Source of the DNA: an uncultured bacterium
Lineage (GTDB): Bacteria > Krumholzibacteriota > Krumholzibacteriia > Krumholzibacteriales > Krumholzibacteriaceae
NCBI GenBank assembly: GCA_963813815.1
Contig: CAWFAD010000009.1
Location: 6,851-70,850 of the forward strand
DNA: 64,000 nt
Reading direction: 5' to 3'
Shown here: piece after piece, positions 1 to 43,758 of the stretch
Numbering within the stretch: position 1 is the first letter of the stretch
Layout: the number at the start of each line of letters is the position of its first letter
Notes under the pieces: generated by a model
Told to the model about the DNA's origin: nothing
Seen by the model: the letters and a program-made list of their open reading frames with translations, nothing else
Database searches by the model: none
Made by a program: the position numbers and the translations under genes

Positions 1-1989
1 CACGAGCATCGTCGACATTCACCCGGACGGCGCGCGAGCGCTCGTCATGAAGCACTACGAGGATCTATCGCAGCGCCCGTACGGCGAGAGCGAGGTGCAC
101 GTCGTCGACCTCGAGGACGGGAGCTCGGAGCTCATCTGGAAAGGCGGCTGGATCGACGACGTCTCGTATTCCCCGACGGGGGAACGATCCTGTTCACGGC
201 GGGCCCATCGGCCTTCGGAGAGGCCGGCGTCAAGGTCCCCGAGGGAATGACGCCGAACGAGTACGACGGGCAGCTCTACCTCTTCGACCCCGCGACGAAG
301 CGCTCGGAGCCCCTGACGAGGGATTTCGATCCCGCGGTCCGGCACGCGCACTGGTCGAAGGCGGACGGTAACATCTATATCGTCGCCGAGGACCGCTCGC
401 GCACCGGGCTCTACCGCTGCGACCCGAAAACGAAGGCCATCCGGAGCATCCGGACGCCCTTCGAGGTCTCGCCGGAGTTCGATTTCGCCCTCGATCGCCC
501 CGCGGCCGTTTTCGTCGGAAGCGGCGCCGTCGATCCTCCCCGTCTCTACGCGACCGACCTCCGGAAGGGCATCTCCCGAATGATATTCGATCCGAACGCC
601 GAGAGGTTCGCGAACGTGATCCAGGGAGACGTCGTGCCGTGGACCTTCACCGCCTCCTCCGGGAAAACGATCGACGGTCACTACTACCTGCCGCCCGGCT
701 TCGATCCCGCCGGGAAGTACCCCTGCATCGTTTACTACTACGGCGGCACCTCGCCCGTCGACCGCAGCTACGGCGGCCGCTATCCGAAAAATCTCTGGGC
801 GGCGCACGGCTACGTGGTCTACGTGCTGCAGCCGAGCGGAGCGACGGGCTACGGACAGGAGTTTTCCGCGTACCACGTGAACGACTGGGGCGCCGTCGCC
901 GCCGGCGAGGTCATCGAGGGCGCGAAGAAGTTCGTCGAAGCGCATCCGTGGGTCGACGGGACGCGGCTCGGCTGCATCGGCGCTTCCTTCGGGGGATTCA
1001 TGACCCAGCTCGTCATCACCCGGACGGACCTCTTCGCCGCCGCGGTCTCGCACGCGGGAATCAGCTTCATCGGAAGCTACTGGGGCGAGGGGTACTGGGG
1101 CTACTCGTACAACGCCGTCGCAGCCGCGGGCAGCTTCCCCTGGAACCGGCGTGACATCTACGTCGACCGAAGCCCCCTCTTCAACGCCGACAAGGTCACG
1201 ACCCCGCTCCTCCTCACCCACGGCACCGCGGACACGAACGTCCCGCCGGGGGAGAGCGAGCAGATGTTCACGGCCCTCAAGCTCCTCGGGAAGACGGTCG
1301 AGTACCTGCGGGTGGAGGGGCAGAATCACTTCGTGCTGGAGCGCCCCAAGCGCGAGCTCTGGTCGAAATCGATCATCGCGTGGTTCGACCGGTTCCTCAA
1401 GAACGAGCCGGAGTGGTGGCACGAGCTCTACCCGTCCGGCAAGGCCGAGGGCTCGCCCGGCGGCGAGGCCCCCGGCGCGGCCAAGAGGGAGCCCGCGGCG
1501 CCCCCGGCCCCCCTCGGCCCCACGGTCATCGAAAAGACGGACGGCTCGAAGGTCGTCCTCGGCGAGGTCGCGCGCCGGGATATCGCCGACAACCTCGCCG
1601 GCTGGGATGCGGAGTACTTCGACTACCGCCCGGACGAATCGCTCCTCGGCGAGATCGCCGGCCGGCTCGGCGGAATCGAGATAACCGTCGTTCTCGGCAC
1701 CTGGTGCGGCGACTCGCGCCGGGAGGTGCCCCGATTCTGGAAGATCGCGGACGCCGTCGGGCTGGATCCCTCGGCGCTCCGGATGTTCGCCGTCGAAAGC
1801 TCGCGCGCCAAACCCGACTCCATCCTCACGCAACCCCTCCTCGACTGGTCCCAGAGCGTTCGGGCATGGTACGGCGTCAAGGCGGTGGAGAGCATCATCG
1901 TGTTTCGGGGCGGCCGGGAGATCGGCCGGATAGTCGAGGCTCCGGCGGTGTCGATCGAGGCGGATTTGCTCGAAATATTGAAAAAATAG
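1..1989 (+). CDS. S9-family serine peptidase (prolyl oligopeptidase / acylaminoacyl-peptidase-like: beta-propeller + alpha/beta hydrolase) fused to a C-terminal thioredoxin-like domain; 5'-partial; apparent frameshift in a C4/G5 run at ~171-182
   Basis: PD40-like SPDG repeats; catalytic triad motifs GASFGGF (Ser), HGTADTNVP (Asp), GQNHF (His); linker SGKAEGSPGGEAPGAAKREPAAPP; C-terminal ~150 aa Trx-like fold with WCGDS (monothiol CxxS). The ORF 47-250 is the same gene in another frame (frameshift). Confidence 0.8.
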   Translation, partial: HEHRRHSPGRRASARHEALRGSIAAPVRRERGARRRPRGRELGAHLERRLDRRRLVFPDGGTILFTAGPSAFGEAGVKVPEGMTPNEYDGQLYLFDPATKRSEPLTRDFDPAVRHAHWSKADGNIYIVAEDRSRTGLYRCDPKTKAIRSIRTPFEVSPEFDFALDRPAAVFVGSGAVDPPRLYATDLRKGISRMIFDPNAERFANVIQGDVVPWTFTASSGKTIDGHYYLPPGFDPAGKYPCIVYYYGGTSPVDRSYGGRYPKNLWAAHGYVVYVLQPSGATGYGQEFSAYHVNDWGAVAAGEVIEGAKKFVEAHPWVDGTRLGCIGASFGGFMTQLVITRTDLFAAAVSHAGISFIGSYWGEGYWGYSYNAVAAAGSFPWNRRDIYVDRSPLFNADKVTTPLLLTHGTADTNVPPGESEQMFTALKLLGKTVEYLRVEGQNHFVLERPKRELWSKSIIAWFDRFLKNEPEWWHELYPSGKAEGSPGGEAPGAAKREPAAPPAPLGPTVIEKTDGSKVVLGEVARRDIADNLAGWDAEYFDYRPDESLLGEIAGRLGGIEITVVLGTWCGDSRREVPRFWKIADAVGLDPSALRMFAVESSRAKPDSILTQPLLDWSQSVRAWYGVKAVESIIVFRGGREIGRIVEAPAVSIEADLLEILKK

Positions 1990-2347
1990 CCCCCCCGGGA
2001 GGGGTGGGCCGGACCCCAAAAATATTGCTGGCATAAAAAAGGGTTTGCACGTATACTCATAACATACCGTTCTTGTCTGTGGAGGGCTTGCAAGAAAGAA
2101 AGTTACGGTTTCCAAGATCGCGTGATGCACAAGACCTATCGAGACGCTTCGCTCCTGCCTATCTAACTCACCGGGACATGCTTCTTCGATACTTCTCTTG
2201 TGATATCCATGCATCCCGCGCCGAATCCACAGCGCGGACGGCGACGGAGGAAACCGAACGAAGGGAGTGATGATCGTATTCGGCCTTAAGACTCGCAGTT
2301 TATCGTAGTTCGTTTGGTACCTATGTTCGCGAAAGGACTCTCTTCGT

Positions 2348-2698
2348 ATGGCTAAGAAGATTTACGTCGGCAACTTGTCATTCAATACGACGGACGATGA
2401 CCTCTCCAAGCTTTTCCAGCCGTTCGGCCAGGTAAGCTCGGCCCGCGTCATCACCGACAAGTTCACGAACCGCTCCCGCGGCTTCGGCTTCGTCGAGATG
2501 GATAACAGCGAGGAGGCCGACAAGGCCATCGCCGAGCTCAACGGCAAGAGCGTCGACGGACGCGCCCTCAAGGTCAACGAGGCGCAGCCGCGCGAGGACA
2601 AGCCGAGAGGCGGCGGCGGCGGCGGCTTCGGTGGCGGTGGAGGCTTCGGCGGCGGCGGCGGCGGCGGACGGAGAGGCGGCGGACGCGACCGCTTCTAA
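2348..2698 (+). CDS. RRM-type RNA-binding protein with Gly-rich C-terminal tail (Rbp / cold-shock-like glycine-rich RNA-binding protein), copy 1
   Basis: RNP-2 IYVGNL and RNP-1 RGFGFVEM motifs; GGGFGGGG tail ending RRGGGRDRF; RBS AAGGA upstream within conserved GCGAAAGGACTC motif. Confidence 0.9.
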   Translation: MAKKIYVGNLSFNTTDDDLSKLFQPFGQVSSARVITDKFTNRSRGFGFVEMDNSEEADKAIAELNGKSVDGRALKVNEAQPREDKPRGGGGGGFGGGGGFGGGGGGGRRGGGRDRF

Positions 2699-2797
2699 TC
2701 CGGTTCGGCGTTGCAAATAGATTTGGACTGAAAGGGCCCGGGAGCCTTATCCGGGCGCCGGGCCTAGTATTGCAGGAAGCGAAAGGATTCCGTGACC

Positions 2798-3229
2798 ATG
2801 GCCAAGAAGATCTATGTTGGCAACCTGTCGTTCAATACGACGGACGATGACCTCTCCAAGCTTTTCCAGCCGTTCGGCCAGGTGAGCTCGGCCCGCGTCA
2901 TCACCGACAAGTTCACGAACCGCTCCCGCGGTTTCGGATTCGTCGAAATGGATAAAAATGAAGAGGCCGACAAGGCCATCGCCGAGCTCAACGGCAAGAG
3001 CTCCGACGGACGGGCTCTCAAGGTGAGCGAAGCGCAGCCGCGCGAGGACAAGCCGAGAGGCGGCGGCGGCTTCGGTGGCGGTGGAGGTGGAGGCTTCGGT
3101 GGCGGTGGAGGATTCGGGGCGGCGGCGGCGGCGGACGGAGAGGCGGCGGACGCGACCGCTTCTAGGGCGCGCAACGGCGTCCTTTTTGAAATAGAAACGT
3201 TTTCAGCAGTCAGCGAAAGGACTCGATAG
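2798..3229 (+). CDS. RRM-type Gly-rich RNA-binding protein, copy 2; C-terminus frameshifted inside the GGC repeat (expected stop TAG at 3163-3165)
   Basis: 91% identical to copy 1 over the RRM; after GGGGFGGGGGFG the reading frame slips (GAAAAADGEAAD...) instead of RRGGGRDRF*. Confidence 0.8.
   Translation: MAKKIYVGNLSFNTTDDDLSKLFQPFGQVSSARVITDKFTNRSRGFGFVEMDKNEEADKAIAELNGKSSDGRALKVSEAQPREDKPRGGGGFGGGGGGGFGGGGGFGAAAAADGEAADATASRARNGVLFEIETFSAVSERTR
3052..3150 (+). repeat. GGC/GGT trinucleotide (poly-Gly coding) repeat tract; equivalent tracts at 2608-2690 and 3490-3600
   Basis: Runs of ggcggcggcggc / ggtggcggtgga visible in all three rbp copies; slippage-prone. Confidence 0.8.
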
Positions 3230-3231
3230 TA

Positions 3232-3615
3232 ATGGCAAAGAAGATTTACGTGGGCAACCTCTCGTTCAACACGACCGACGATCAGCTGAACCAGCTGTTT
3301 GCTCCGTACGGTCAGATCACCTCCGCCCGGGTCGTGATGGACAACTTCACGAGCCGCTCGAAGGGCTTCGGCTTCGTCGAGATGGAAAAGCCGGAAGAGG
3401 CCGACAAGGCCATCGCCGAGCTCAACGGCAAAGAGGTCGAGGGCCGGGCCCTCAAGGTGAGCGAAGCTCGTCCCCGCGAGGATAGGCCGAGAAGCGGCGG
3501 CAACCGCTTCGGCGGCAGCGGCGGTAGCGGCGGCGGCGGCGGCTTCGGTGGCGGTGGAGGCTTCGGCGGCGGCGGCGGCGGCGGACGGAGAGGCGGCGGA
3601 CGCGACCGCTTCTAG
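3232..3615 (+). CDS. RRM-type Gly-rich RNA-binding protein, copy 3
   Basis: IYVGNLSFNTTDDQL, KGFGFVEM, Gly-rich tail ending RRGGGRDRF*; same GCGAAAGGACTC leader motif at 3212-3224. Confidence 0.9.
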   Translation: MAKKIYVGNLSFNTTDDQLNQLFAPYGQITSARVVMDNFTSRSKGFGFVEMEKPEEADKAIAELNGKEVEGRALKVSEARPREDRPRSGGNRFGGSGGSGGGGGFGGGGGFGGGGGGGRRGGGRDRF

Positions 3616-3644
3616 CACGACGCCTGTCGACGGTTGAATACCGA

Positions 3645-3680
3645 GGGCGCGGGGATTTCGTTCCCCGCGCCCTTTCTTTT
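3645..3680 (+). terminator. Rho-independent terminator of the rbp array
   Basis: GGGCGCGGGGA-tttcgt-TCCCCGCGCCC stem followed by TTTCTTTT. Confidence 0.7.
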
Positions 3681-3694
3681 CGCCTTCGCCGCGC

Positions 3695-3730
3695 AAAAAA
3701 AAGGCCCCGCGGCTTTCGCCGCGAGGCCTT
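3695..3730 (-). terminator. Rho-independent terminator downstream of tRNA-Asp (minus strand)
   Basis: On the minus strand: AAGGCCTCGCGGC-gaaa-GCCGCGGGGCC followed by T8. Confidence 0.6.
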
Positions 3731-3736
3731 CGAGTC

Positions 3737-3816
3737 TGGCGGGGCCGACGAGATTCGAACTCGCGACCTCCTGCGTGACAGGCAGGCGTTCTAACCAAAC
3801 TGAACTACGACCCCGC
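3737..3816 (-). tRNA. tRNA-Asp: tRNA-Asp (anticodon GTC), CCA encoded
   Basis: The reverse complement reads GCGGGGTCGTAGTTCAGTTTGGTTAGAACGCCTGCCTGTCACGCAGGAGGTCGCGAGTTCGAATCTCGTCGGCCCCGCCA; cloverleaf with anticodon loop CTGTCAC and T-loop GGTTCGAATC. Confidence 0.9.
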
Positions 3817-3889
3817 TGATACGATCATTGTACGAGCAAGCGGCGGGCCGGAAAACGAAAAAAGCCGACACCCTCCGCCAGCTTAATCA

Positions 3890-3918
3890 TTTATAACAGA
3901 CAAAAAAGGGCCTGTCAA
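3890..3918 (-). promoter_or_regulatory. Sigma-70-like promoter for tRNA-Asp (minus strand): TTGACA-N17-TATAAA
   Basis: Reverse complement of 3890-3918 is TTGACAggcccttttttgtctgtTATAAA; the -35 lies 5 nt beyond the nagZ stop. Confidence 0.55.
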
Positions 3919-3921
3919 TCG

Positions 3922-5427
3922 CTATTTGGCGATCTCAACGCCGAGCAGATCGGCGGCCGCGTCGTAGAGGCCGTAGGTGACGACCGCCCGGGCACCCGGC
4001 GGCAGGAGATCGGCCGCGTAGGGCCACCCGGCGACGACGACGAGGCGGGCGCCGGCCGAAAGGCGCGCGATCGTCTCTCCGTCGAGGGGCCGGCGGTTGA
4101 GAAAGAACACTGCGTCGGCCGGCGCTTCGGGTCCGGCCGCGCCGGGAAAGACGCGGGATTCGAGGCCGGGAGGGGCGCCGGCGGCCTCTCCCTCCCGCGG
4201 ACCGTCCGGGCGCTCCGCCGCGCCGAGGCTCCGGAGCGATCGCGCGATGAACCTTCTCACGGGGAATCGCTCGAACTCGCCCCGCTCGGCGTGGAACACC
4301 GCTTTGAACGCGCCCGAGGGGAAGTCCGCTCCCGCGAAATCCCCGATGAGCCGGATCGACCTTCGGGCGATCTCCCCGTAGACCGACGAGTCGCCCGGAA
4401 GCTCGAACTCCCTCTCCCTCGCCGCGGCGGCTTCGATGAGCCGCCGCACGCGCGCCGCGGATACGTCCGCCGCGCCGCTCCATTCCTCGCTCCACAGCCC
4501 TTCCGCGGGCGCGTCGGATCCGGGCGACCGAAGGGCCTCGAAAACCTCGACCGCCGGCTTCGAGAAGAGCAATACGTCGCACCCGGCCTCGAGCGAGAGC
4601 CTGCAGACCTCCGGCAGCGAGCGCGCGACGGCCCTCGCCCCCTCCATCTCGAGGGCGTCGGTCATGACGACCCCGTCGAATCCGAGCTCGCGGCGGAGCA
4701 GCCCTCCGATGATCTCGGGATCGAGAGAGGCCGGAAGCGAGCGGTCCCTCGGAGCGACATGTCCCATCATGACGCTCTCGGCGCCCGCCGCCGCTCCACG
4801 CGCGAAGGGGCGAACGTCCGATTTGCGGAGCTCGTCCACGGTGGCGGCGAGCGTAACGAACGCGAGATGCGAGTCGACGGCCGTGGCTCCGTGCCCGGGA
4901 AAATGCTTGAGACAGGTGAGGACTCCCTCCCGCCGCGCGGCGCTCACGGCCACGGCCGTGAGGTTCGAGACGAGAGAAACGTCCTCGCCGAAGCTGCGCG
5001 AGCCGATGACGGGGTTCCTGCTCTCAGAGTTGACGTCGGCGACGGGGCCGAGCAGCATGTTCACGCCGCAGGACCGCAGACGCCGGGCGTTCTCGGCGAA
5101 GAGCCGCTCGCAGAGCTCGGCCTTCCCCGTCCGCGCGGCCGCCATCTGCGTCGGCGGCACGCCGATCGCCCGCGCGAGGACCGAGATGATCCCGCCCTCG
5201 TGATCCGCGGCGATGACCGGCACCGCGCCCCGGGAGTCCCGGAAGACGCGGCGGATATCCTGCGTGAGCTCCATGAGCGCTCTGGCGCCGGCCACGTTGC
5301 GGTCGAAGAGAATCACGCCCGCGACGGGGTAGCGGGAGAGAATGGAGCGCTCCTCGTCCGTGAGCGCCGGCCCGGCGAGGCCGACGACGCAATGAGGGGC
5401 TATCGTATGCAGCGACGCATCGGTCAT
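3922..5427 (-). CDS. nagZ: beta-N-acetylhexosaminidase NagZ (glycoside hydrolase family 3)
   Basis: GH3 N-terminal domain motifs incl. KHFPGHG, GFDGVVMTDALEM; 501 aa. Confidence 0.85.
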   Translation of the reverse strand: MTDASLHTIAPHCVVGLAGPALTDEERSILSRYPVAGVILFDRNVAGARALMELTQDIRRVFRDSRGAVPVIAADHEGGIISVLARAIGVPPTQMAAARTGKAELCERLFAENARRLRSCGVNMLLGPVADVNSESRNPVIGSRSFGEDVSLVSNLTAVAVSAARREGVLTCLKHFPGHGATAVDSHLAFVTLAATVDELRKSDVRPFARGAAAGAESVMMGHVAPRDRSLPASLDPEIIGGLLRRELGFDGVVMTDALEMEGARAVARSLPEVCRLSLEAGCDVLLFSKPAVEVFEALRSPGSDAPAEGLWSEEWSGAADVSAARVRRLIEAAAAREREFELPGDSSVYGEIARRSIRLIGDFAGADFPSGAFKAVFHAERGEFERFPVRRFIARSLRSLGAAERPDGPREGEAAGAPPGLESRVFPGAAGPEAPADAVFFLNRRPLDGETIARLSAGARLVVVAGWPYAADLLPPGARAVVTYGLYDAAADLLGVEIAK

Positions 5428-7685: not shown

Positions 7686-10600
7686 CTACTCGAGCTTGAC
7701 GATCTTCCCCTCGATATCGATGCTCCGTCCCCCGCGATCGACCCGCAGAACGTAGATGTAGGTTCCGTTCGCGACGCGGTCTCCCGCCAGATCGCGCCCG
7801 TCCCATACGATCGAATGGGGGCTGATGAAGCTCGCCGCGAGAAGATCTCCCGTCCCGAGGGCAAAGCTTCTCACGAGAACGCCGCTCACGTTGTAAATGT
7901 CGATGCGGCCGGCGTCGGCGGCGAGATTCATCGTGTAGACGATGTTGGTCTCGCCCCTGAACGGGTTCGGGAAGTTGAAAACGTCGACGACGAGCGCGTC
8001 CCCGGTGACGGCGAAGACGATGTCCCGCGAGAACTCCCCGGTCTTCACCGTGAAAACGCGCGTTCCCGCCGGGAGCGTGCGCTCGAAGGAGGCCTCCCAG
8101 CGGAGCGAGTCGGCCGGATCCGGGACGACGAAATGAACGCCGTCCTCCGGGATGCCGTCGATGGAAAGCGTCGGCGGAGACGCGAGATAGGCCGGGAAAT
8201 CCGCCGTGACGGTGAAGGTTCCCGTCGGCGGGCTCTCCACGCCCGGCAGTATCTCGAGGTAGTCGTTGTAAAAGAGACGAATCTGCGTCGCGATCGAGAC
8301 CTCGAGCCTCCCCGCCTCTTCCCCCTCCGGCGTCGCCACGCCCCACACGAGGAGCTCGTCGGCCGGATCGATCGTGTACCGCACGTCCGCCCGGTACGAG
8401 CGGGAGAAGGTCTCGTTCGTGTCGAGCAGCGCGGTGATCCCGAGCGAATCCGACCAGCTCTCGCCGTCGATCGCGAGGGAGACCGGCCCGATCGCGACGA
8501 CGTCGCTCGCGGTGAGGCGCAACGCCACCTCGTTCGTGCCGTTTCGGGCCCGGAGCGTTCCGGTTCCGACGGGCTCGAACCCCTCGCCCCAGTCCGCCTC
8601 GAGGCGGAGCAGCGGCGGGCCCGGATCCACCCGCAGCATGGGATCGCCGAGGAGATGGTAGCGCAGAATCTGATCGACCCCGAACGATGTCTGTCCCATG
8701 TGCTCGATCTCGGCCTGGGTAATCATCTCCCCGAGAATCCAGTGGGCCCCCGTGTACTCGTTGAGCGGCGCGACCGAATCGACGGGGGGGCGCTTGAACA
8801 CGTTCTCGATGAGACATTCGGCGAGCTCGGAGTTCTGCGAGAGGTACTCGAACGCGCCGCTCGCGTACGTGGAGATCGCGCCGCCGCCCGGCTTGAAGAG
8901 CAGCTGCTCGCTCATGCAGTCGCCCTGCTGCCCGACGTACGACGAGTAGGAGAGCTCCTGCCAGACGGAGAAATCGCTGATGTGGCAGCCGAACGCGCCG
9001 AAGACGAACGGAATGGCGGTCCGCAGGCTGTCGATGTCGTTGTAGAACTGGAGAGCGAAGGCCGACTCCGTCGTGAGGACGGCGCGGTTCGCGTGCCCCT
9101 GATACAGGTGCAGCAGACAGCCCCTGTTGAGCGCCGCGACGAGCGCCGGCGTGAACGTCCGGCGCGTCAGATCGCGGGCGCGCGAGAACACCTCGCTCCC
9201 GTATTCATCCAGATTGGGATGGGCGGGGGCCGTATAGGGAGCGAGAAAGAGCCGGTTGACCTCGAATCCTCCCGGGAGCGAGCGCTCGACGATGGCGCCG
9301 CAGGAATCGGTGCTCCACTCGAACTCGAGCTCGTACGGACGGTACCGGTAATCGCCGCCGGTACCCGACCAGGCGTCGTCCGAAAAGAGCACGACGCGCC
9401 GGCGCCAGAGGTCGTCCGGCTCGGCGCTCTCGTCGCGATAGAGCTTGGTGAGGAGGGCGCGCAGCTCCACGTCGCGCCCGACCGGGAACCGCCCGATGAA
9501 AACGTCCGGATAGGCGTCGGCGCCCGGATTGCCGTCGAGAAAGGCGTACCACTTGTCGGACGAAACGGTCTCGTCGTCGTACGATCCGGTGACGCTCTCC
9601 ACGTAGCTGTACGAGGGCACGTAATCGGGCGGAGAGCCGCGCAGATCTCCATCCGGGTAGGCATAGATACGCTTGTGATCCTCGCTCGCGTCCCCCACGA
9701 GCAGCACGTATTCGACGCCCCAGCGGTCGAAGGCGTCCTTGATGAATCGCTTGATCGCGGCCGCGTGCGGCCTGCCGCCGTTGTACTCGTCGAAGACGTC
9801 CTCGACGTCCGCGGTAAAGACGCGGTATCCCTGCGCCCTCCGCCAATCGACGTACTCTCCGATCCGCTGCAGGAAATCCCCGTGCGAGACGACGAGCGTT
9901 TGATAGCTCCCCGGCGTCGCGCGAAGCGCGGACGGCGCGTCCACCTCCGCCGCCCGAGCGGGAAACGCGGTTCCGGCGAGACCCCCGAGCGCGATGAAAC
10001 GGCGCGGCGAATAGCTCTCCTCGAGGTTGAGAGCGAGCTTCCACCCTCCGCTCCCGTCCTCCGCGAAATCGGACGCGCCGAGCTCGCGATACACGGGATG
10101 CCGCGCGTCGGTGATCTCGACGAGAAGGCCCGAGGAAACGGTGAATCCGGCTATTTCGATTCCCGCGGCTCCGCCCGCCGGATCGAGCGTGAACTCGAGT
10201 GCGTTCCCGCTCGCGACGAACCGGCCGGGATGCTCGACCGTAAAATCGTTCACGAGGTGCGCGAAGTCCGCGTCGCAGACGACGACGAGCTCGTTCTGGC
10301 CGTCGGCGAGCCAGATGGCCGGAAGGTCGGCGAAGTGAAAGGTCTTCGCCTCCTTGGCGCCGAAGCCTCCGGCGCCGATGAGATGCGTGCCGGCGCCGTT
10401 ACGCAGGCTGAAGGAAATCGTATGGTCGTAGCCGAGCCCGTCTCCCCCCTGGATCCTGATCGTGATCGCCCAAACCCCCGTCGAGGAGGGCTCGTGCAGA
10501 TCGAAGGGGATCGCGTACTCCCGGTAGTCCTTCCCCTTGCGAAAATAGAAATCGAATGTTCCCGGCACGGCGTTTTTCATGAACGCCGTGTCCTCGCGCT

Positions 10601-11735
10601 CCAGCTTCACGGCCCGGTACGACGAGACGGGGACCTCGTAGGAGGGGGCGAGCGGTATCCCGGAGCTCATGAGCGCGCCCGCCGAGCCCTCCTCGAGCCA
10701 GAGAACGTTGTCGCCGGTATAGAGAGCGTCCCGATCTCCCGCGAGCGAGTCGTCCTTGACGCCGAGCGCGTAGAAGTAGAGGCGATCGTCTCCGTCGAGC
10801 ACGCCGGCGCTTCCGCCCGCTCCCTCGCGCACGAGGAGCGGCACGTCGACCGCGCGAACGAAGCCGGGCGCCGCCGCGTCGTAGTAGCGCTTTCGGAGCG
10901 CAATCTCTCCCGGCGCGAGCCCCGGAGAGAGCCCCGCGGCGATGAGGGAGTCGGCGCGGATGACGTAGAGCCCCGTATCCGGCACGCGGAGCTTGAGGCA
11001 CTTCCCCTCGAGCGCCGGCGCGGCGGCGGCGAGCCCCGAGGGGAGAGGCAGACGATAGGCCGAAACGTCGGCGGGGTTGACGAGCAGGTTGCCGTAGAGC
11101 CGTTTCCATCCTCCCGAGAGGGGCGTCTCGACGGCCCCCGCTTCGCCGAGCGGCGCGCGCGGCGCCTCGAAGCTCACCGTGAGAAGGATGCGGCGGGCGA
11201 GGCGCGCCTCCCCCCGCTCGTCGATCGAGAGAGGATTCACCCTCACGGGGAGAACGCGCTGGCGTCCCATGAAGGACGGCTCGAGCGCCGAGGCGAGCGG
11301 CGGCGCGTCCCCCGCGCGCCACGGATCGGGCGGAAGGTATCGCTCGGACGAGGGGAGGCCGTCGCGCCCCTCGACGAGCCGCTCGCCGTACACGCGGGCG
11401 AGAGCCACGCGCCCGAGGCTCTCCTCCTCGAGCACGGAAAACGATAAACGCGAGGCGCCCGCGGCGGGTATCGCCACGTGATACGTCCTGCCGGGGAGCT
11501 CCGCCGCTCCCGGAGGCGAGAACGTTCCGAATCCGTCGATGAGAACCCGAACCGCCCCATCTTCCGCCCGCTCGATGCGGGGGGAGGGAATCGCGATCTC
11601 GAAGGTCAGCGAGCCGCGGCCCGACGAAACGAGACGGGCTCCCTCCGGGGAAGCCGCGGCGCGCCCCGGCATGGCGCACACGACAACGCAGAGGGCGCCT
11701 GCGACGAGCGCCGCTCGACTCACCTGTCCGATCAC
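7686..11735 (-). CDS. Large secreted peptidase C25 (gingipain-like) family protein with C-terminal FlgD-Ig / T9SS-type sorting-like domain
   Basis: Signal peptide ALVAGALCVVVCAMPGRAAA after GTG start with GAGGTGA RBS; C25 catalytic His (LYQGHANRAV) and Cys (FGAFGCHISDF) motifs; propeptide/Ig-like regions; CTD FNFPNPFRGETNIVY...GTYIYVLRVDRGG...KIVKLE. The upstream portion of the 1636-aa ORF belongs to a separate frameshifted small gene. Confidence 0.75.
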   Translation of the reverse strand: MIGQVSRAALVAGALCVVVCAMPGRAAASPEGARLVSSGRGSLTFEIAIPSPRIERAEDGAVRVLIDGFGTFSPPGAAELPGRTYHVAIPAAGASRLSFSVLEEESLGRVALARVYGERLVEGRDGLPSSERYLPPDPWRAGDAPPLASALEPSFMGRQRVLPVRVNPLSIDERGEARLARRILLTVSFEAPRAPLGEAGAVETPLSGGWKRLYGNLLVNPADVSAYRLPLPSGLAAAAPALEGKCLKLRVPDTGLYVIRADSLIAAGLSPGLAPGEIALRKRYYDAAAPGFVRAVDVPLLVREGAGGSAGVLDGDDRLYFYALGVKDDSLAGDRDALYTGDNVLWLEEGSAGALMSSGIPLAPSYEVPVSSYRAVKLEREDTAFMKNAVPGTFDFYFRKGKDYREYAIPFDLHEPSSTGVWAITIRIQGGDGLGYDHTISFSLRNGAGTHLIGAGGFGAKEAKTFHFADLPAIWLADGQNELVVVCDADFAHLVNDFTVEHPGRFVASGNALEFTLDPAGGAAGIEIAGFTVSSGLLVEITDARHPVYRELGASDFAEDGSGGWKLALNLEESYSPRRFIALGGLAGTAFPARAAEVDAPSALRATPGSYQTLVVSHGDFLQRIGEYVDWRRAQGYRVFTADVEDVFDEYNGGRPHAAAIKRFIKDAFDRWGVEYVLLVGDASEDHKRIYAYPDGDLRGSPPDYVPSYSYVESVTGSYDDETVSSDKWYAFLDGNPGADAYPDVFIGRFPVGRDVELRALLTKLYRDESAEPDDLWRRRVVLFSDDAWSGTGGDYRYRPYELEFEWSTDSCGAIVERSLPGGFEVNRLFLAPYTAPAHPNLDEYGSEVFSRARDLTRRTFTPALVAALNRGCLLHLYQGHANRAVLTTESAFALQFYNDIDSLRTAIPFVFGAFGCHISDFSVWQELSYSSYVGQQGDCMSEQLLFKPGGGAISTYASGAFEYLSQNSELAECLIENVFKRPPVDSVAPLNEYTGAHWILGEMITQAEIEHMGQTSFGVDQILRYHLLGDPMLRVDPGPPLLRLEADWGEGFEPVGTGTLRARNGTNEVALRLTASDVVAIGPVSLAIDGESWSDSLGITALLDTNETFSRSYRADVRYTIDPADELLVWGVATPEGEEAGRLEVSIATQIRLFYNDYLEILPGVESPPTGTFTVTADFPAYLASPPTLSIDGIPEDGVHFVVPDPADSLRWEASFERTLPAGTRVFTVKTGEFSRDIVFAVTGDALVVDVFNFPNPFRGETNIVYTMNLAADAGRIDIYNVSGVLVRSFALGTGDLLAASFISPHSIVWDGRDLAGDRVANGTYIYVLRVDRGGRSIDIEGKIVKLE

Positions 11736-11869
11736 GCGGGGTTCACCTCGTTTCCAGGGGCGCTGCGATGGAGAGCGCGGGAGACGGCGAGGAGCCGCCA
11801 TGTCCTGCATTGAATCTATTTTCCCGCTCCCGAAAAGACAAGCCGAAAATGGCGAAGGCCGAAAACGCC

Positions 11870-11895
11870 GATGGGGACCCATCAGGGTCCCCATC
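11870..11895 (-). terminator. Hairpin terminator after small secreted protein paralog 1
   Basis: GATGGGGACCC-atca-GGGTCCCCATC perfect 11-bp stem. Confidence 0.6.
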
Positions 11896-11927
11896 GGCTT
11901 CACTATGCGCACCGAGTAAGAGCGTTT

Positions 11928-12467
11928 AGAAAAGGCTCTTAATTGCGCCCCAGCTCGACTCTTCAGTCGCCACGCCGCACGGCTGGTTGAGATACAGCTG
12001 GGTGAGAATCGTGAGAGGATAAATCGGGATAACCGAGCTCGCAGCTCGCGATCTGGAGAAGGTAGGGCAGGCTGAGCGGCTTGCCTTCGACCTTGATGAT
12101 CGAGGCGGTCGGAGTCGCGATGCTCATGCAGGTAATCTTCTGCGCCCAGACCCAATCCATCCAGCAGCTCGCGTAGGACACGCTGATGCCGGCGGCCCAG
12201 TCGCCGAGGGTGAGGTTGATGTCGGGGTTCGTCGTCGTGCCCGTCGAAATGATCCCGGCCGGAAGGATGACACGGTACTCGGCGGCCCGAATGCCGGTGC
12301 CGTCCTGGTTGACCATGAACACGTAGCAGTCGAACGGCGTGTACATGCCGGTGGCTCACGGAGCACAGGCTGTGCGCCGCATCGCTGTAAAGCCCTACGT
12401 ATTTCGCTGCGTTCGCGGAGCCGGTGATGAGCAGAAGCATCGTTCCAAGGATGAGCGCCTTTTTCAT
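11928..12467 (-). CDS. Small secreted Cys-containing protein, paralog 1 (two apparent frameshifts in C-runs at ~12026-12029 and ~12348-12354)
   Basis: Signal peptide MKKALILGTMLLLITGSANA with GGAGG RBS; reconstructing two single-base indels restores ~75% identity to paralog 2, including the identical C-terminus SWGAIKSLF*. Confidence 0.6.
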
Positions 12468-12691
12468 GTTGTCTTTCCTCCGAACTAGTGTTGCGGCGAG
12501 CCGGTCTCTGATTCTGGCTGCCATGCTAACCAATTTATTTGTTCGCCGTTTCCTTTCCGGATTACTCCTTTCCGCCGTCAAGGCCGCTGAGCTCAATTGG
12601 TAGTTAACAAACCGCTATTTCTGACACACGACAATTGTACCATACCCGGGAAATTTTGTAAAGCGGCATGAGCGGGAAATGATAAAAAAAT

Positions 12692-12718
12692 GATGGGGAC
12701 CCAAATCGGATCCCCATC
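12692..12718 (-). terminator. Hairpin terminator after paralog 2
   Basis: GATGGGGA-cccaaatcgga-TCCCCATC; same stem as the paralog-1 terminator. Confidence 0.55.
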
Positions 12719-12744
12719 ATTATCAATCAGTTAGAGCCGCTGTC

Positions 12745-42519: not shown

Positions 42520-43758
42520 CTACGGTTGCCGGTATACCCGCCAGAGGAGCGCCGCGTTTTCGTCGCCGTCCGTAAAGAGACGAATGGCGTTCTCTCCGAC
42601 CTTCACGAGCCCGTCGCGCAGCCGCACCGTCCGCGGGGCGAAGCCGGCCGAGTCATACGGAGCGCGCCGGTACTCGAACGCGAGCTCCCCGTTGATCCAC
42701 GCCGCGGCCGTGTCGACGACGGCCGGAAGGGGCCACTCGAAGGGCGGCGGCGCGACGTCGAGATAGTACGAATACACGACCGTCAGAAGCGACGGCGGAC
42801 TGACGAAGGTCGCGTTGAGCTCGAAGCTCGTGACGGTTGCCGGCCCCACGAGAACCGGCCCGAAGAGAACCTCGGGAACGGGCGCCAGAATCGGGAAGAG
42901 CCCGAAATGCGCGCTCACGTAGTTCTGAACGACGCCGTCGCGCTCGACGAGGGTGACGAGCAGCGGATTGGCGGTCGTCACCTCCCAGACGTCCTCGCGG
43001 GCGGCGACCATGACCTTGTACACTCCCGCCGCGAGCCCCCCGAAACGGTACCGGCCGAGCGAGTCCGTCCGCGAGAGAAGCATGACCGTACCGGTCGAGA
43101 GGGGCTGCTCGATGGCGACCGTGATGCCCGGGATGCCCGGCTCCTGCACGCCGTCGCAGCGATCGAACTCGCCGTCTCGATCGGCGTCGAGATACACGAT
43201 CCCGTAGATCGTACCCTCCCCCTCGGCGGGCCCGACGTCGATCCGGTATCCGATGGCGAACGACCGCGCCGTGACCGTGTGGAACTTCATCGCGACCGGA
43301 GCCGTGCGCTCCTCGGGCGAGAAGAGATCGTCATCGCCGAGCGCGTCGCTGAAATCGTAGAACGGAAATCCGTCGGGCGAGCTTCCGTCGGGCCGGACGA
43401 CCGCGATGTCCGCCGGCGCGACGCTCGTGATGACGAAACGAATCGGCGCCGGAATGACGACGAGGCTCCTGTTCACGAGCTCGACGTCGAACGAAACGAT
43501 CCCCGTCTCCTCGTCGAACGCGAGGTCCTTCGCCCAGATTTCGATGCGCCCGGGCGTCAGCTCGGCGTTCGACACCGAACCGAGGAGAAAATCGCCCGGC
43601 GTCTCGGGATCGATCGCGCCGGTTCCGGAGAGGTCGCCCACGATCTCGTCGTAGAGGATCGACGACTCCTGATCGCATGAGAGCGTAAAGACCAGCGTCG
43701 CCGAAAGCAGCAGGAGAACGATGAGCGAGGCGATGGAGAAACGATTGTGACGCGCCAT
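42520..43758 (-). CDS. Lipoprotein with SdrD-B-like / Cna-B-type (carboxypeptidase-regulatory-like) Ca-binding domain
   Basis: GGAGGT RBS; lipobox LVFTLSC; GIVYLDADRDGEFDRCDGVQEPGIPGITVAI...GRYRFGGLAAGVYKVMV. Confidence 0.55.
   Translation of the reverse strand: MARHNRFSIASLIVLLLLSATLVFTLSCDQESSILYDEIVGDLSGTGAIDPETPGDFLLGSVSNAELTPGRIEIWAKDLAFDEETGIVSFDVELVNRSLVVIPAPIRFVITSVAPADIAVVRPDGSSPDGFPFYDFSDALGDDDLFSPEERTAPVAMKFHTVTARSFAIGYRIDVGPAEGEGTIYGIVYLDADRDGEFDRCDGVQEPGIPGITVAIEQPLSTGTVMLLSRTDSLGRYRFGGLAAGVYKVMVAAREDVWEVTTANPLLVTLVERDGVVQNYVSAHFGLFPILAPVPEVLFGPVLVGPATVTSFELNATFVSPPSLLTVVYSYYLDVAPPPFEWPLPAVVDTAAAWINGELAFEYRRAPYDSAGFAPRTVRLRDGLVKVGENAIRLFTDGDENAALLWRVYRQP

Follow-up and report, generated by a model that had tools for sequence, protein, structure and literature searches.

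A Conserved Structured Leader RNA Upstream of Tandem RRM-Protein Genes in Krumholzibacteria

Introduction

How does a bacterium set the amounts of its own RNA chaperones? The question is raised by a locus from an uncultured member of the Krumholzibacteriaceae, in which three tandem genes for RNA recognition motif (RRM) proteins, here called rbp1, rbp2 and rbp3, follow a region of unusually low GC content. The locus lies in a stretch of 64,000 nucleotides (nt) of contig CAWFAD010000009.1 (assembly GCA_963813815.1, positions 6,851-70,850 of the forward strand); this whole stretch is referred to as the window, and positions are those of the window. Bacterial RRM proteins are emerging as Hfq- or CspA-like RNA chaperones of the Fibrobacterota-Chlorobiota-Bacteroidota (FCB) group, and their RNA targets and own regulation are largely unknown. 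The reading favored here, and considered probable, is that positions 2028-3684 form one transcription unit whose structured 5' untranslated region (5'UTR) acts in cis and post-transcriptionally on Rbp output, a sequence motif shared by the three genes being their ribosome-binding site (RBS) and a frameshift in rbp2 being an artefact. The leader is an uncatalogued structured RNA specific to Krumholzibacteria rbp genes and belongs with the cis-regulatory leaders of RNA-binding-protein genes.

A Conserved Leader Is Joined to rbp Genes

The predicted 5' untranslated leader covers positions 2064-2347 of the + strand (~284 nt), directly ahead of rbp1; the leader elements and helices described below are all on this strand. 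The region 1990-2347 has a GC content of 51.7%, with a minimum of 0.483 in the 358-nt segment starting at 2021, and is the lowest-GC stretch of the window, which has 65.6% GC and in which less than 0.5% of segments fall below 0.51. The AT-rich character given to this ~350-bp region by an initial annotation of the window therefore holds, at a GC content of 51.7% rather than the ~45% then quoted.

Homologues were collected by iterated nhmmer searches started from positions 2020-2347. A homologous element of ~275 nt (2079-2341 in the window) was found in 39 places, representing 21 distinct sequences, and each ends 5-10 nt before an rbp ATG. Together with three Krumholzibacteria metagenome-assembled genomes (MAGs) from NCBI, the collection comprises 24 distinct leader sequences, all 24 directly upstream of an rbp start. 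In a separate scan, a blind pattern of four invariant blocks was run over 241 million metagenome records and returned 15 loci, 13 of which are a leader upstream of an rbp gene; the matches in L063 and L065 (loci are designated by L numbers throughout) lie inside an unrelated coding region and were rejected as chance. The number of genes served by a leader varies between lineages: in some, each of two tandem rbp genes has its own leader (L038, L055), in others the leader stands before the second gene only, and in the lineage of the window and its two closest relatives one leader stands ahead of three rbp genes. As a side observation, the ~320 nt upstream of the first rbp gene in two-gene loci (L047 1887-2210, L037 2892-3221, L061 2191-2330 and L064 1092-1176) are either not recognized as a leader or recognized weakly over their 3' part (15-16 bits), and such regions may represent another kind of rbp leader that has diverged.

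Conservation of the leader well exceeds that of neutral sites. Its identity is 77-89% between the three closest lineages, compared with 57-69% at four-fold degenerate positions in the peptidase and GH3 genes on either side, and the conservation spans ~280 nt 3' of the promoter -10 box, up to the Shine-Dalgarno (SD) sequence. Blocks that are invariant or nearly so in distant lineages include GGAG, CAAGATCG, CCTATCGA, CCGGGAC, TCGATA, TCTTGT, GAAGGAGAGGTGA and GAAAGGA. In the other phyla sampled no leader was found, and the covariance model R1 described below was blank in Kiritimatiellia and in 31 loci from other phyla. Likewise, the leader matched no Rfam family: searches of the whole window (gathering threshold), of positions 1900-3950 (E <= 10) and of five further leader-bearing loci (E <= 1) returned only tRNA and noise.

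The Leader Folds into a Three-Way Junction

The leader folds into a conserved three-way junction, with covariation in helices P1 and P5. This domain, the core of the leader, occupies ~150 nt (2106-2256) and consists of a closing helix (P1), a long arm (P2-P3-P4) and a variable GC-rich arm (P5), a layout that recurs in independent minimum free energy (MFE) folds of three divergent leaders. P1 is a long-range helix in which the 5' strand CGGUUUCC (2106-2113) pairs with the 3' strand GGAAACCG (2249-2256) through eight contiguous Watson-Crick pairs; elsewhere the same helix is built from other sequences, such as AAUCC/GGAUU, GAUUCAAA/UUUGAAUC and GCAAG..UCUC/GAGA..CUUGC. P5 (2216-2247) pairs CCGCGCCG (2216-2223) with CGGCG(A)CGG (2239-2247), with an alternative in the window of CCGCGC (2216-2221) with GCGCGG (2232-2237), and every lineage has a GC-rich imperfect hairpin at this position, with stems that differ in sequence.

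Pairing in both helices was examined by an alignment-free arm-swap test, in which each lineage's own two arms are compared with arms permuted between lineages (5000 permutations). For P1 the cognate arms gave -11.3 kcal/mol against -8.0 +/- 0.62 for permuted arms, and for P5 -22.3 against -17.7 +/- 0.96 kcal/mol, none of the 5000 permutations being as good in either case. Eight other long-range pairings, which included those of the purine block, the 5' region or the CU tract with the initiation region, served as a control for the same test and were non-significant, save that the CU tract paired with the initiation region was marginal (p = 0.028).

Covariation was also counted in two alignments, A8 (plain MAFFT, not fitted to the model) and A12 (model-fitted, 23 sequences). 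In A8, 80.1% of cells are paired against 76.9% after shuffling, 44 cells carry double changes against 24.3, and the covariation score is 0.159 against 0.119, the observed value being reached by none of 500 shuffles in each case. The corresponding figures in A12 are 82.7% against 78.0%, 62 against 27.6 and 0.185 against 0.118, and sliding the 3' partner by 1-3 columns leaves 32-53% of cells paired. In model helix 1, which comprises P1 and an inner GAUC/GAUC stack (P1b), 7 of 13 pairs have changes on both sides, as have 11 of 15 pairs in P5. Compensation of this kind in the two helices indicates that RNA pairing is under selection. Misalignment of P1 and P5 in the plain MAFFT alignments limited RNAalifold to P3 and fragments, and a column-wise helix scan was similarly limited.

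A covariance model, R1 (161 positions, 49 bp), was built from 20 leader sequences and matches the window with 83 bits (E = 4e-19). It found the held-out leaders of the three NCBI Krumholzibacteria MAGs with 99.7-161.7 bits, ~100 nt upstream of rbp genes, and all six of its matches in held-out loci (L070-L074, L076) adjoin an rbp gene. One of these, L073, has another neighborhood, between genes for isoleucyl-tRNA synthetase and a PNP/UDP phosphorylase family protein. Collectively, conservation above neutral sites, the constant association with rbp genes and the covariation-supported structure bear out the earlier suggestion that the AT-rich region is a candidate regulatory leader.

The long arm is far less variable. 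P2, its first part, pairs CACAAGA (2128-2134) with UCUUGUG (2196-2202) through seven pairs in the window; other lineages have UGCAAGA/G facing the same UCUUGUG, so that changes are one-sided and wobble-compatible with no double change, and the 3' strand block TCTTGT is nearly invariant. Sequence conservation plus complementarity thus suggest the P2 pairing only weakly. In the middle of the arm, P3 pairs UAUCGAG (2137-2143) with UUCGAUA (2185-2191). TATCGA and TCGATA are invariant in all 20 leaders used to build the model, the held-out L073 departing at two of these pairs, and an extension of P3 covaries, being CAG/CUG in most lineages and GG/CC or GC/GC in the group of the window (95.7% of cells paired). 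The tip of the arm is the P4 hairpin (2153-2176), in which UCCUG (2153-2157) would pair with CGGGA (2172-2176) within the invariant CCGGGAC; lineage groups differ by 2 nt in its register, pairing holds in 79% of cells, and the MFE folds give this predicted hairpin moderate support.

On either side of the junction stands an SD-like purine block. The one on the 5' side, GGAGG (2081-2085), has its counterpart in the near-invariant GGAG that other lineages carry within CCGAAGGAG, and arm-swap tests found no covarying partner for this 5' block. The 3' block ACGAAGGGAGU (2259-2269), which is like an extended SD sequence, corresponds to the near-invariant GAAGGAGAGGUGA elsewhere, and the distance from the domain to the SD sequence of rbp1 is ~90 nt. 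The GAAGGAGAGGUGA block of other lineages also resembles an extended complement of the 16S rRNA 3' end. In the window, ACGAAGGGAGU can form 11 bp with ACUCUCUUCGU (2337-2347), located between the SD sequence and the rbp1 AUG (-20.8 kcal/mol). This pairing showed no covariation across lineages (p = 0.37), is weaker in L032 and L034 and is absent elsewhere, and as a predicted structure it is a possible lineage-specific translational brake.

Leader and rbp Genes Form a Predicted Transcription Unit

A predicted promoter lies at 2028-2057 (+ strand), with a -35-like CTGGCA (2028-2033), an 18-nt spacer and a -10 box TATACT (2052-2057), and is the sole sigma-70-like site in 1800-4000. Transcription is predicted to start at ~2064, and a TAnnnT -10 box stands at the aligned position in 18 of the 18 leader lineages inspected. 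Two other readings of this area were discarded: TGGCA-N10-TTGCA has the wrong spacing for a sigma-54 promoter, and the GC hairpins at 1990-2017 (+ strand) have no T tract after them, the terminator-like call there being on the - strand with no gene to end.

At the other end, an intrinsic terminator follows rbp3 (3643-3684, + strand), consisting of a 13-bp GC-rich hairpin (3643-3674) and a T-rich tail. It is kept in orthologues with compensatory stem changes and is the only convincing + strand terminator of the array. Within the leader itself (2064-2347), no terminator-like site was found on the + strand. The spacers between rbp1 and rbp2 (99 nt) and between rbp2 and rbp3 (66 nt) each contain an SD sequence, and neither contains a terminator. 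With a single promoter-like site, a single + strand terminator and terminator-free spacers, the three genes are read as one predicted operon, and we infer their co-transcription.

A hairpin can be read from the sequence in the first spacer (2735-2764, + strand; GGCCCGG/CCGGGCC, no U tract). It is not scored as a terminator, and the stems of its orthologues differ, being GCCGCGG/CCGCGGC in L032 and CCCGGG/CCCGGG in L035. Its presence in all three orthologous lineages (L032, L034, L035) is recorded as a separate observation; possible roles are in processing or stability, or as a weak attenuator between the cistrons.

The genes themselves are what the initial annotation had taken them for, three tandem RRM/Gly-rich paralogs, all on the + strand and all matching Pfam RRM_1 (PF00076) with 93.8 (rbp1), 89.4 (rbp2) and 93.6 bits (rbp3) at a cutoff of 20.7, residues 5-75 of each protein aligning to profile positions 1-70 of 70. 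The RNP2 motif of RRM domains is I/V-Y/F-V-G-N-L and the RNP1 motif is K/R-G-F-G-F-V-x-F/M; correspondingly, IYVGNL and RGFGFVEM (KGFGFVEM in rbp3) are visible in the three translations. In rbp1 (2348-2698, 116 residues) the domain is followed by a Gly/Arg-rich tail, and in rbp3 (3232-3615, 127 residues) by a longer Gly-rich one, G/F repeats and then RRGGGRDRF closing both proteins. The rbp2 product (2798-3165, 122 residues) has the same ending only if one base is restored at 3116-3119. Additionally, the last 88 nt of rbp1 (2610-2697) are 100% identical to rbp3 (3527-3614), the two genes being ~76% identical overall, a pattern suggestive of gene conversion in the Gly/Arg tail or of its concerted evolution.

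Orthologues of rbp1 are 94-95% identical and the closest proteins are all metagenomic, relatives with 76-83% identity carrying the NCBI names Candidatus Krumholzibacteria or Krumholzibacteriaceae. Rbp proteins of other phyla reach at most 62% identity to rbp1 among the matches listed in a genome-contig scan, and an exact-protein look-up of rbp1 and rbp3 returned no record. Source labels for this class of protein read "cold-inducible RNA-binding protein". Upstream of the array, a peptidase S9 family gene ends at 1989, and downstream of rbp3 lies a convergent tRNA-Asp (3737-3814, - strand). Syntenic contigs in JGI, ENA and NCBI assemblies show the order peptidase, rbp genes, GH3 glycosidase and SpoIID, and the gene array is ordinary for this Krumholzibacteria lineage.

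The Shared Motif Is Explained by the Ribosome-Binding Site

The three genes had also been credited with a conserved leader motif embedding the RBS. This motif, GCGAAAGGAYTC, is real, with exactly three occurrences in the 64 kb (2329, 2779 and 3213) where shuffles expect 0.03, and each copy lies 8-9 nt ahead of an rbp ATG. Upstream of rbp1 it reads GCGAAAGGACTC (2329-2340), with the SD core GAAAGGA at 2331-2337; the SD region of rbp2 reads GCGAAAGGATTC (2779-2790) and that of rbp3 again GCGAAAGGACTC (3213-3224), all on the + strand. GAAAGGA is the sole part that is invariant across all leaders and more than 40 related rbp genes, at 8-11 nt before the ATG, and the extra shared bases (GC.......YTC) are limited to recent paralogues and orthologues. 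SD-like 4-mers precede 12 of the 36 long open reading frames (ORFs) of the window, compared with a background of 0.17, so this organism appears to use SD sequences. Since only GAAAGGA is invariant, the 12-nt motif is explained by the RBS and would essentially be that site. The sharing seen at first is thereby largely explained away, and the view that the RBS alone accounts for it comes close to the whole answer, the flanking bases being common just to recent paralogues and orthologues.

Copies 2 and 3 were further said to share an upstream motif, and they do, in the form of AAATAGA (2715-2721 and 3189-3195) rather than the longer GAAATAGA, copy 2 having C instead of G before AAATAGA. The window has six copies of this 7-mer where 1.3 would be expected. 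All three orthologous lineages retain ATAGA in spacer 1 and two of the three in spacer 2, a partial conservation that was noticed post hoc and is suggestive. More widely, (A)ATAGA recurs ahead of rbp starts, and most other leaders have GCATAGA ~55-85 nt before the ATG, a sequence absent from the leader of the window group. The idea that the spacers are remnants of an ancestral leader 3' module (ATAGA...SD) was rejected: a hidden Markov model of the module matches the three RBSs only through GAAAGGA (E = 0.2-0.4), leaving ATAGA unaligned.

The Frameshift in rbp2

In the sequence as given, rbp2 is an ORF for 143 residues (2798-3229) with an out-of-frame Ala-rich tail, and the earlier remark that copy 2 loses its RRGGGRDRF tail is correct for that frame. 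The lesion is a single-base deletion at TTCGGGGCGG (3116-3119, + strand; TTC GGGG CGG, compared with TTC GGC GGC GG in the paralogues), beside an extra in-frame 24-nt repeat. The orthologous rbp2 is in frame in L032, L033, L035 and L036. The sole other shifted copy is rbp1 of L034 (GCA_002403295.1, 3558-3926), where the shift lies inside the Gly tract together with an N (X in the translation); its counterpart is intact in L035 and L036, both with an identical rbp2 protein. A similar 1-nt deletion, in a C run (TTCCCCGACGGGGG, ~172-181), affects the peptidase S9 gene ~3 kb upstream, its orthologue aligning in frame +2 over residues 394-453 and in frame +1 over 451-1052 (165-250). The break in the peptidase gene suggests assembly indel errors, a pseudogene being less likely.

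The intact orthologues and the similar deletion in the peptidase gene make an assembly error likely, and we regard a sequencing or assembly error as quite probably the cause of the rbp2 shift. A biological origin, whether as a recent inactivating or tail-swapping mutation or as phase-variable or programmed frameshifting in the Gly tract, is doubtful. The shift is present in the sequence as given and leaves the RRM domain intact, its new frame stays open for 36 further codons to a stop at 3227-3229, 2 nt before the rbp3 ATG, and Gly-tract length is genuinely variable, rbp2 having its extra 24-nt repeat. However, the only comparable case carries an ambiguous base, a change of one nucleotide does not amount to a repeat unit, a slippery heptamer is missing and the shifted tail lacks conservation. 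Programmed frameshifting in particular is extremely improbable. The initial annotation had proposed that slippage in the GGC tract makes the length or frame of the Gly tail hypervariable. As regards the frame, this idea fails, the lesion being a 1-nt deletion rather than the slip of a GGC unit and the orthologues being in frame; as regards length, it holds, with real in-frame differences between paralogues and between lineages. The Gly/GGC tracts of rbp paralogues appear error-prone in assembly, and single-base frameshifts in such GC-rich repetitive tracts need read-level support before a biological reading.

How the Leader May Act

On the favored reading, a transcript would run from the promoter through the ~284-nt leader and three rbp genes, each with its GAAAGGA, to the one intrinsic terminator. 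In the leader, P1 would close the junction, the arm P2-P3-P4 would display CCGGGAC, AUCGA and UCUUG, and P5 would complete the domain. The leader RNA would then set the amount of Rbp in cis, after transcription. The most likely route would be that Rbp proteins bind their own leader, as autogenous feedback or as cross-regulation, and that this binding alters translation initiation, mRNA decay or both. The same arrangement would also permit induction on temperature downshift, as for Bacteroides rbp and E. coli cspA. Both elements of this mechanism, Rbp binding and a temperature response, are drawn by analogy from Bacteroides rbp 5'UTRs, E. coli cspA and the Chlorobi-RRM motif.

Several results weigh against this reading. 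The group of the window is the poorest fit to R1 (83 bits), with registers shifted in P2, P4 and P5. P2, P3 and the loops are almost invariant, so pairing there is unproven by covariation, and the shuffle controls of the pair counts leave some phylogenetic signal. The leaders do not stand out in thermodynamic stability, whole-leader MFE z-scores being -0.24, +0.41 and +0.47 for three leaders, and in single sequences neither the length of the P5 stem relative to dinucleotide shuffles (Fisher p = 0.29) nor its MFE is significant. The -35 element is not conserved beyond the window group. Lastly, across 13 lineages no conserved helix hides the SD sequence or the AUG, predicted SD accessibility ranging from 0.11 to 0.92 at 37°C and shifting in no consistent way at 15°C, and arm-swap tests found no covarying partner of the translation-initiation region.

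These last results also bear on how the leader could work. With no terminator in the leader, no SD-hiding helix and no covarying partner, an attenuator, a melting thermometer and a riboswitch platform are all unsupported. A structured domain, presumably exposed invariant motifs, an accessible RBS and an rbp-only context make a protein-binding platform the most economical interpretation. More specifically, 2106-2256 can tentatively be regarded as a new class of structured RNA, the "rbp leader", confined to Krumholzibacteriota among the sampled phyla and serving as a high-affinity platform for self-sensing by Rbp proteins, possibly also of temperature. An orphan riboswitch controlling an RNA chaperone is less likely.

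Among the other explanations of the leader, the one that survives best is that it acts mainly as a cspA-type RNA thermosensor, whose fold differs with temperature and needs no protein. The downstream genes belong to the class labeled "cold-inducible RNA-binding protein", and Bacteroides RRM-1 proteins act as cold-shock proteins, the authors of that work raising the thermosensor question for rbp 5'UTRs (PMC13370968). Moreover, mutually complementary palindromic blocks of the AUCGAU type (CAAGAUCG, CCUAUCGA, UCGAUA, ACGAUC, GUAUCG) could give alternative folds, and two copies of CAAGA compete for UCUUG. These alternative pairings, however, are made of invariant blocks and none is supported by covariation; equilibrium folding at 37 and 15°C gave no consistent change in accessibility of the SD sequence or AUG in the 13 lineages, the Rfam cspA thermoregulator did not match, and near-invariant loops suit sequence-specific recognition better than a purely thermodynamic switch. 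A leader that is chiefly a thermosensor is therefore unlikely, and a cspA-like kinetic thermosensor could coexist with protein binding.

A second alternative places the conservation in the DNA (promoter, UP element, operators), in a separate small RNA or in a short upstream ORF. The 5' edge of the leader does have an A/T-rich stretch and a conserved -10 box, and its repeated palindromic ATCGAT-like boxes resemble operator half-sites. A GUG follows GAAGGAG in most lineages, with an in-frame stop after 30 nt, and the window has a comparable mini-ORF from an ATG at 2270 to a TAG at 2306-2308 (TAA in L034). As a coding sequence this mini-ORF was rejected: its start is ~2 nt from the SD-like block, substitutions are as frequent at codon positions 1 and 2 as at position 3, and the peptide is not conserved. 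The compensatory changes in P1 and P5, the extension of conservation far beyond the -10 box and the absence of a terminator before rbp1 speak against the DNA-level and small-RNA versions as well, and the whole family of explanations is very improbable. Also weak is the proposal that the three-way junction is a riboswitch aptamer through which a small molecule or ion controls rbp expression, which we consider very improbable: a compact multi-helix junction in a 5'UTR, with covarying P1 and P5, near-invariant loops and junctions and variable peripheral stems, is typical of aptamers, but it is tied to one class of gene, RNA-binding proteins, whose context offers no obvious metabolite link or candidate ligand, it lacks an expression platform, with neither a leader terminator nor a conserved or covarying SD-sequestering helix, and ~90 nt separate it from the SD sequence.

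Comparison with Known Systems

The protein-binding interpretation can be set beside several leaders of genes for RNA-binding proteins. The initial annotation had pointed to cyanobacteria, whose rbp genes reportedly have cold-responsive 5'UTRs, as is said to have been described by Sato and colleagues for Anabaena rbpA1. The likeness would consist of an RRM with a Gly-rich tail, multiple paralogues and conserved 5'UTR sequences said to be implicated in cold regulation. Cyanobacteria are, however, another phylum, and the closest rbp proteins from outside Krumholzibacteria are at most 62% identical among the matches listed. The idea behind this analogy is reasonable and the taxon is the wrong one, closer analogues being the Bacteroides rbp 5'UTRs and the Chlorobi-RRM motif.

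The Chlorobi-RRM motif is found in the presumed 5'UTRs of RRM-protein genes, and its putative function is generally supposed to be autoregulation by the RRM protein, as proposed here for Rbp. It shares with the leader described here the same 5'UTR and RRM-gene context, which does not in itself argue for homology, and the same FCB superphylum. It differs in that no match to its Rfam model (RF01697) was found in 1900-3950 at E <= 10, in the whole window at the gathering threshold or in L059, L073, L076, L038 and L064 at E <= 1, and in that the element here occurs in Krumholzibacteria and is a three-way junction of ~150 nt in a leader of ~285 nt. The motif was proposed as a candidate cis-regulatory RNA of Chlorobi, named for the RRM genes, and is tabulated as "y" for RNA, "y" for cis-regulatory and "n" for switch (PMC2864571).

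The best functional model for the window is provided by Bacteroides thetaiotaomicron, where experiments showed that cold induces rbpA, rbpB and rbpC, whose 5'UTRs measure 122-155 nt, and that feedback acts on these genes by way of the promoter as well as the 5'UTR (Lee, Basu and Vanderpool 2026, PMC13370968). As in the window, long 5'UTRs precede paralogous RRM-1 genes in a member of the FCB group; the Bacteroides proteins are redundant. The Bacteroides 5'UTRs are shorter than the predicted ~284 nt of the window leader and are not reported to have a conserved structure, and the genes are dispersed instead of forming a three-gene operon. Neither nhmmer nor R1 detected similarity in one Bacteroidales rbp locus (L001). 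Whether the Bacteroides rbp 5'UTRs are structured sensors is left open by the authors (PMC13370968).

Similar to the leader described here, the 5'UTR of E. coli cspA is a long leader of a gene for a small, abundant, cold-inducible nucleic-acid chaperone subject to autoregulation and post-transcriptional control (Giuliodori et al. 2010, as cited in PMC13370968). The proteins differ in fold, cold shock domain as opposed to RRM, and the leader of the window has neither an Rfam match nor a predicted temperature-dependent change in accessibility. Ribosomal-protein leaders, which exert autogenous control by target mimicry, offer a further parallel, being structured 5'UTRs with invariant loops and covarying peripheral stems upstream of genes for RNA-binding proteins. 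The regulated proteins here are not ribosomal, and binding by Rbp is putative.

Other Features of the Window

Downstream of the array, back-to-back terminator hairpins at 3643-3674 (+ strand) and 3700-3731 (- strand) separate rbp3 from tRNA-Asp, and both are conserved in orthologues. Farther away, ARAGORN reports a 93-nt tRNA-Arg(ACG) at 43148-43240 (- strand), where the Rfam tRNA model is blank at the gathering threshold; the call is possibly a false positive, or else a tRNA that is atypical or of unusual length. In GC content, positions 12468-12730 rank second lowest in the window; they lie upstream of a very large - strand ORF (7686-12596 as listed). The likely start of this ORF is an ATG at 12467, preceded by GGAGGAAAG, and the N-terminus of its product, MKKALIL, resembles a signal peptide.

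Significance

The leader is a covariation-supported fold tied only to rbp genes, and this makes it a candidate target for binding studies with recombinant protein and for reporter work despite its uncultured host. If its interpretation as a platform for Rbp self-sensing is true, it would provide the first defined RNA target, with the motifs CCGGGAC, AUCGA and GAAGGAG, for a bacterial RRM protein family outside cyanobacteria. To our knowledge, no structured RNA family of its own has been described for the phylum Krumholzibacteria, to which the rbp leader would add one.

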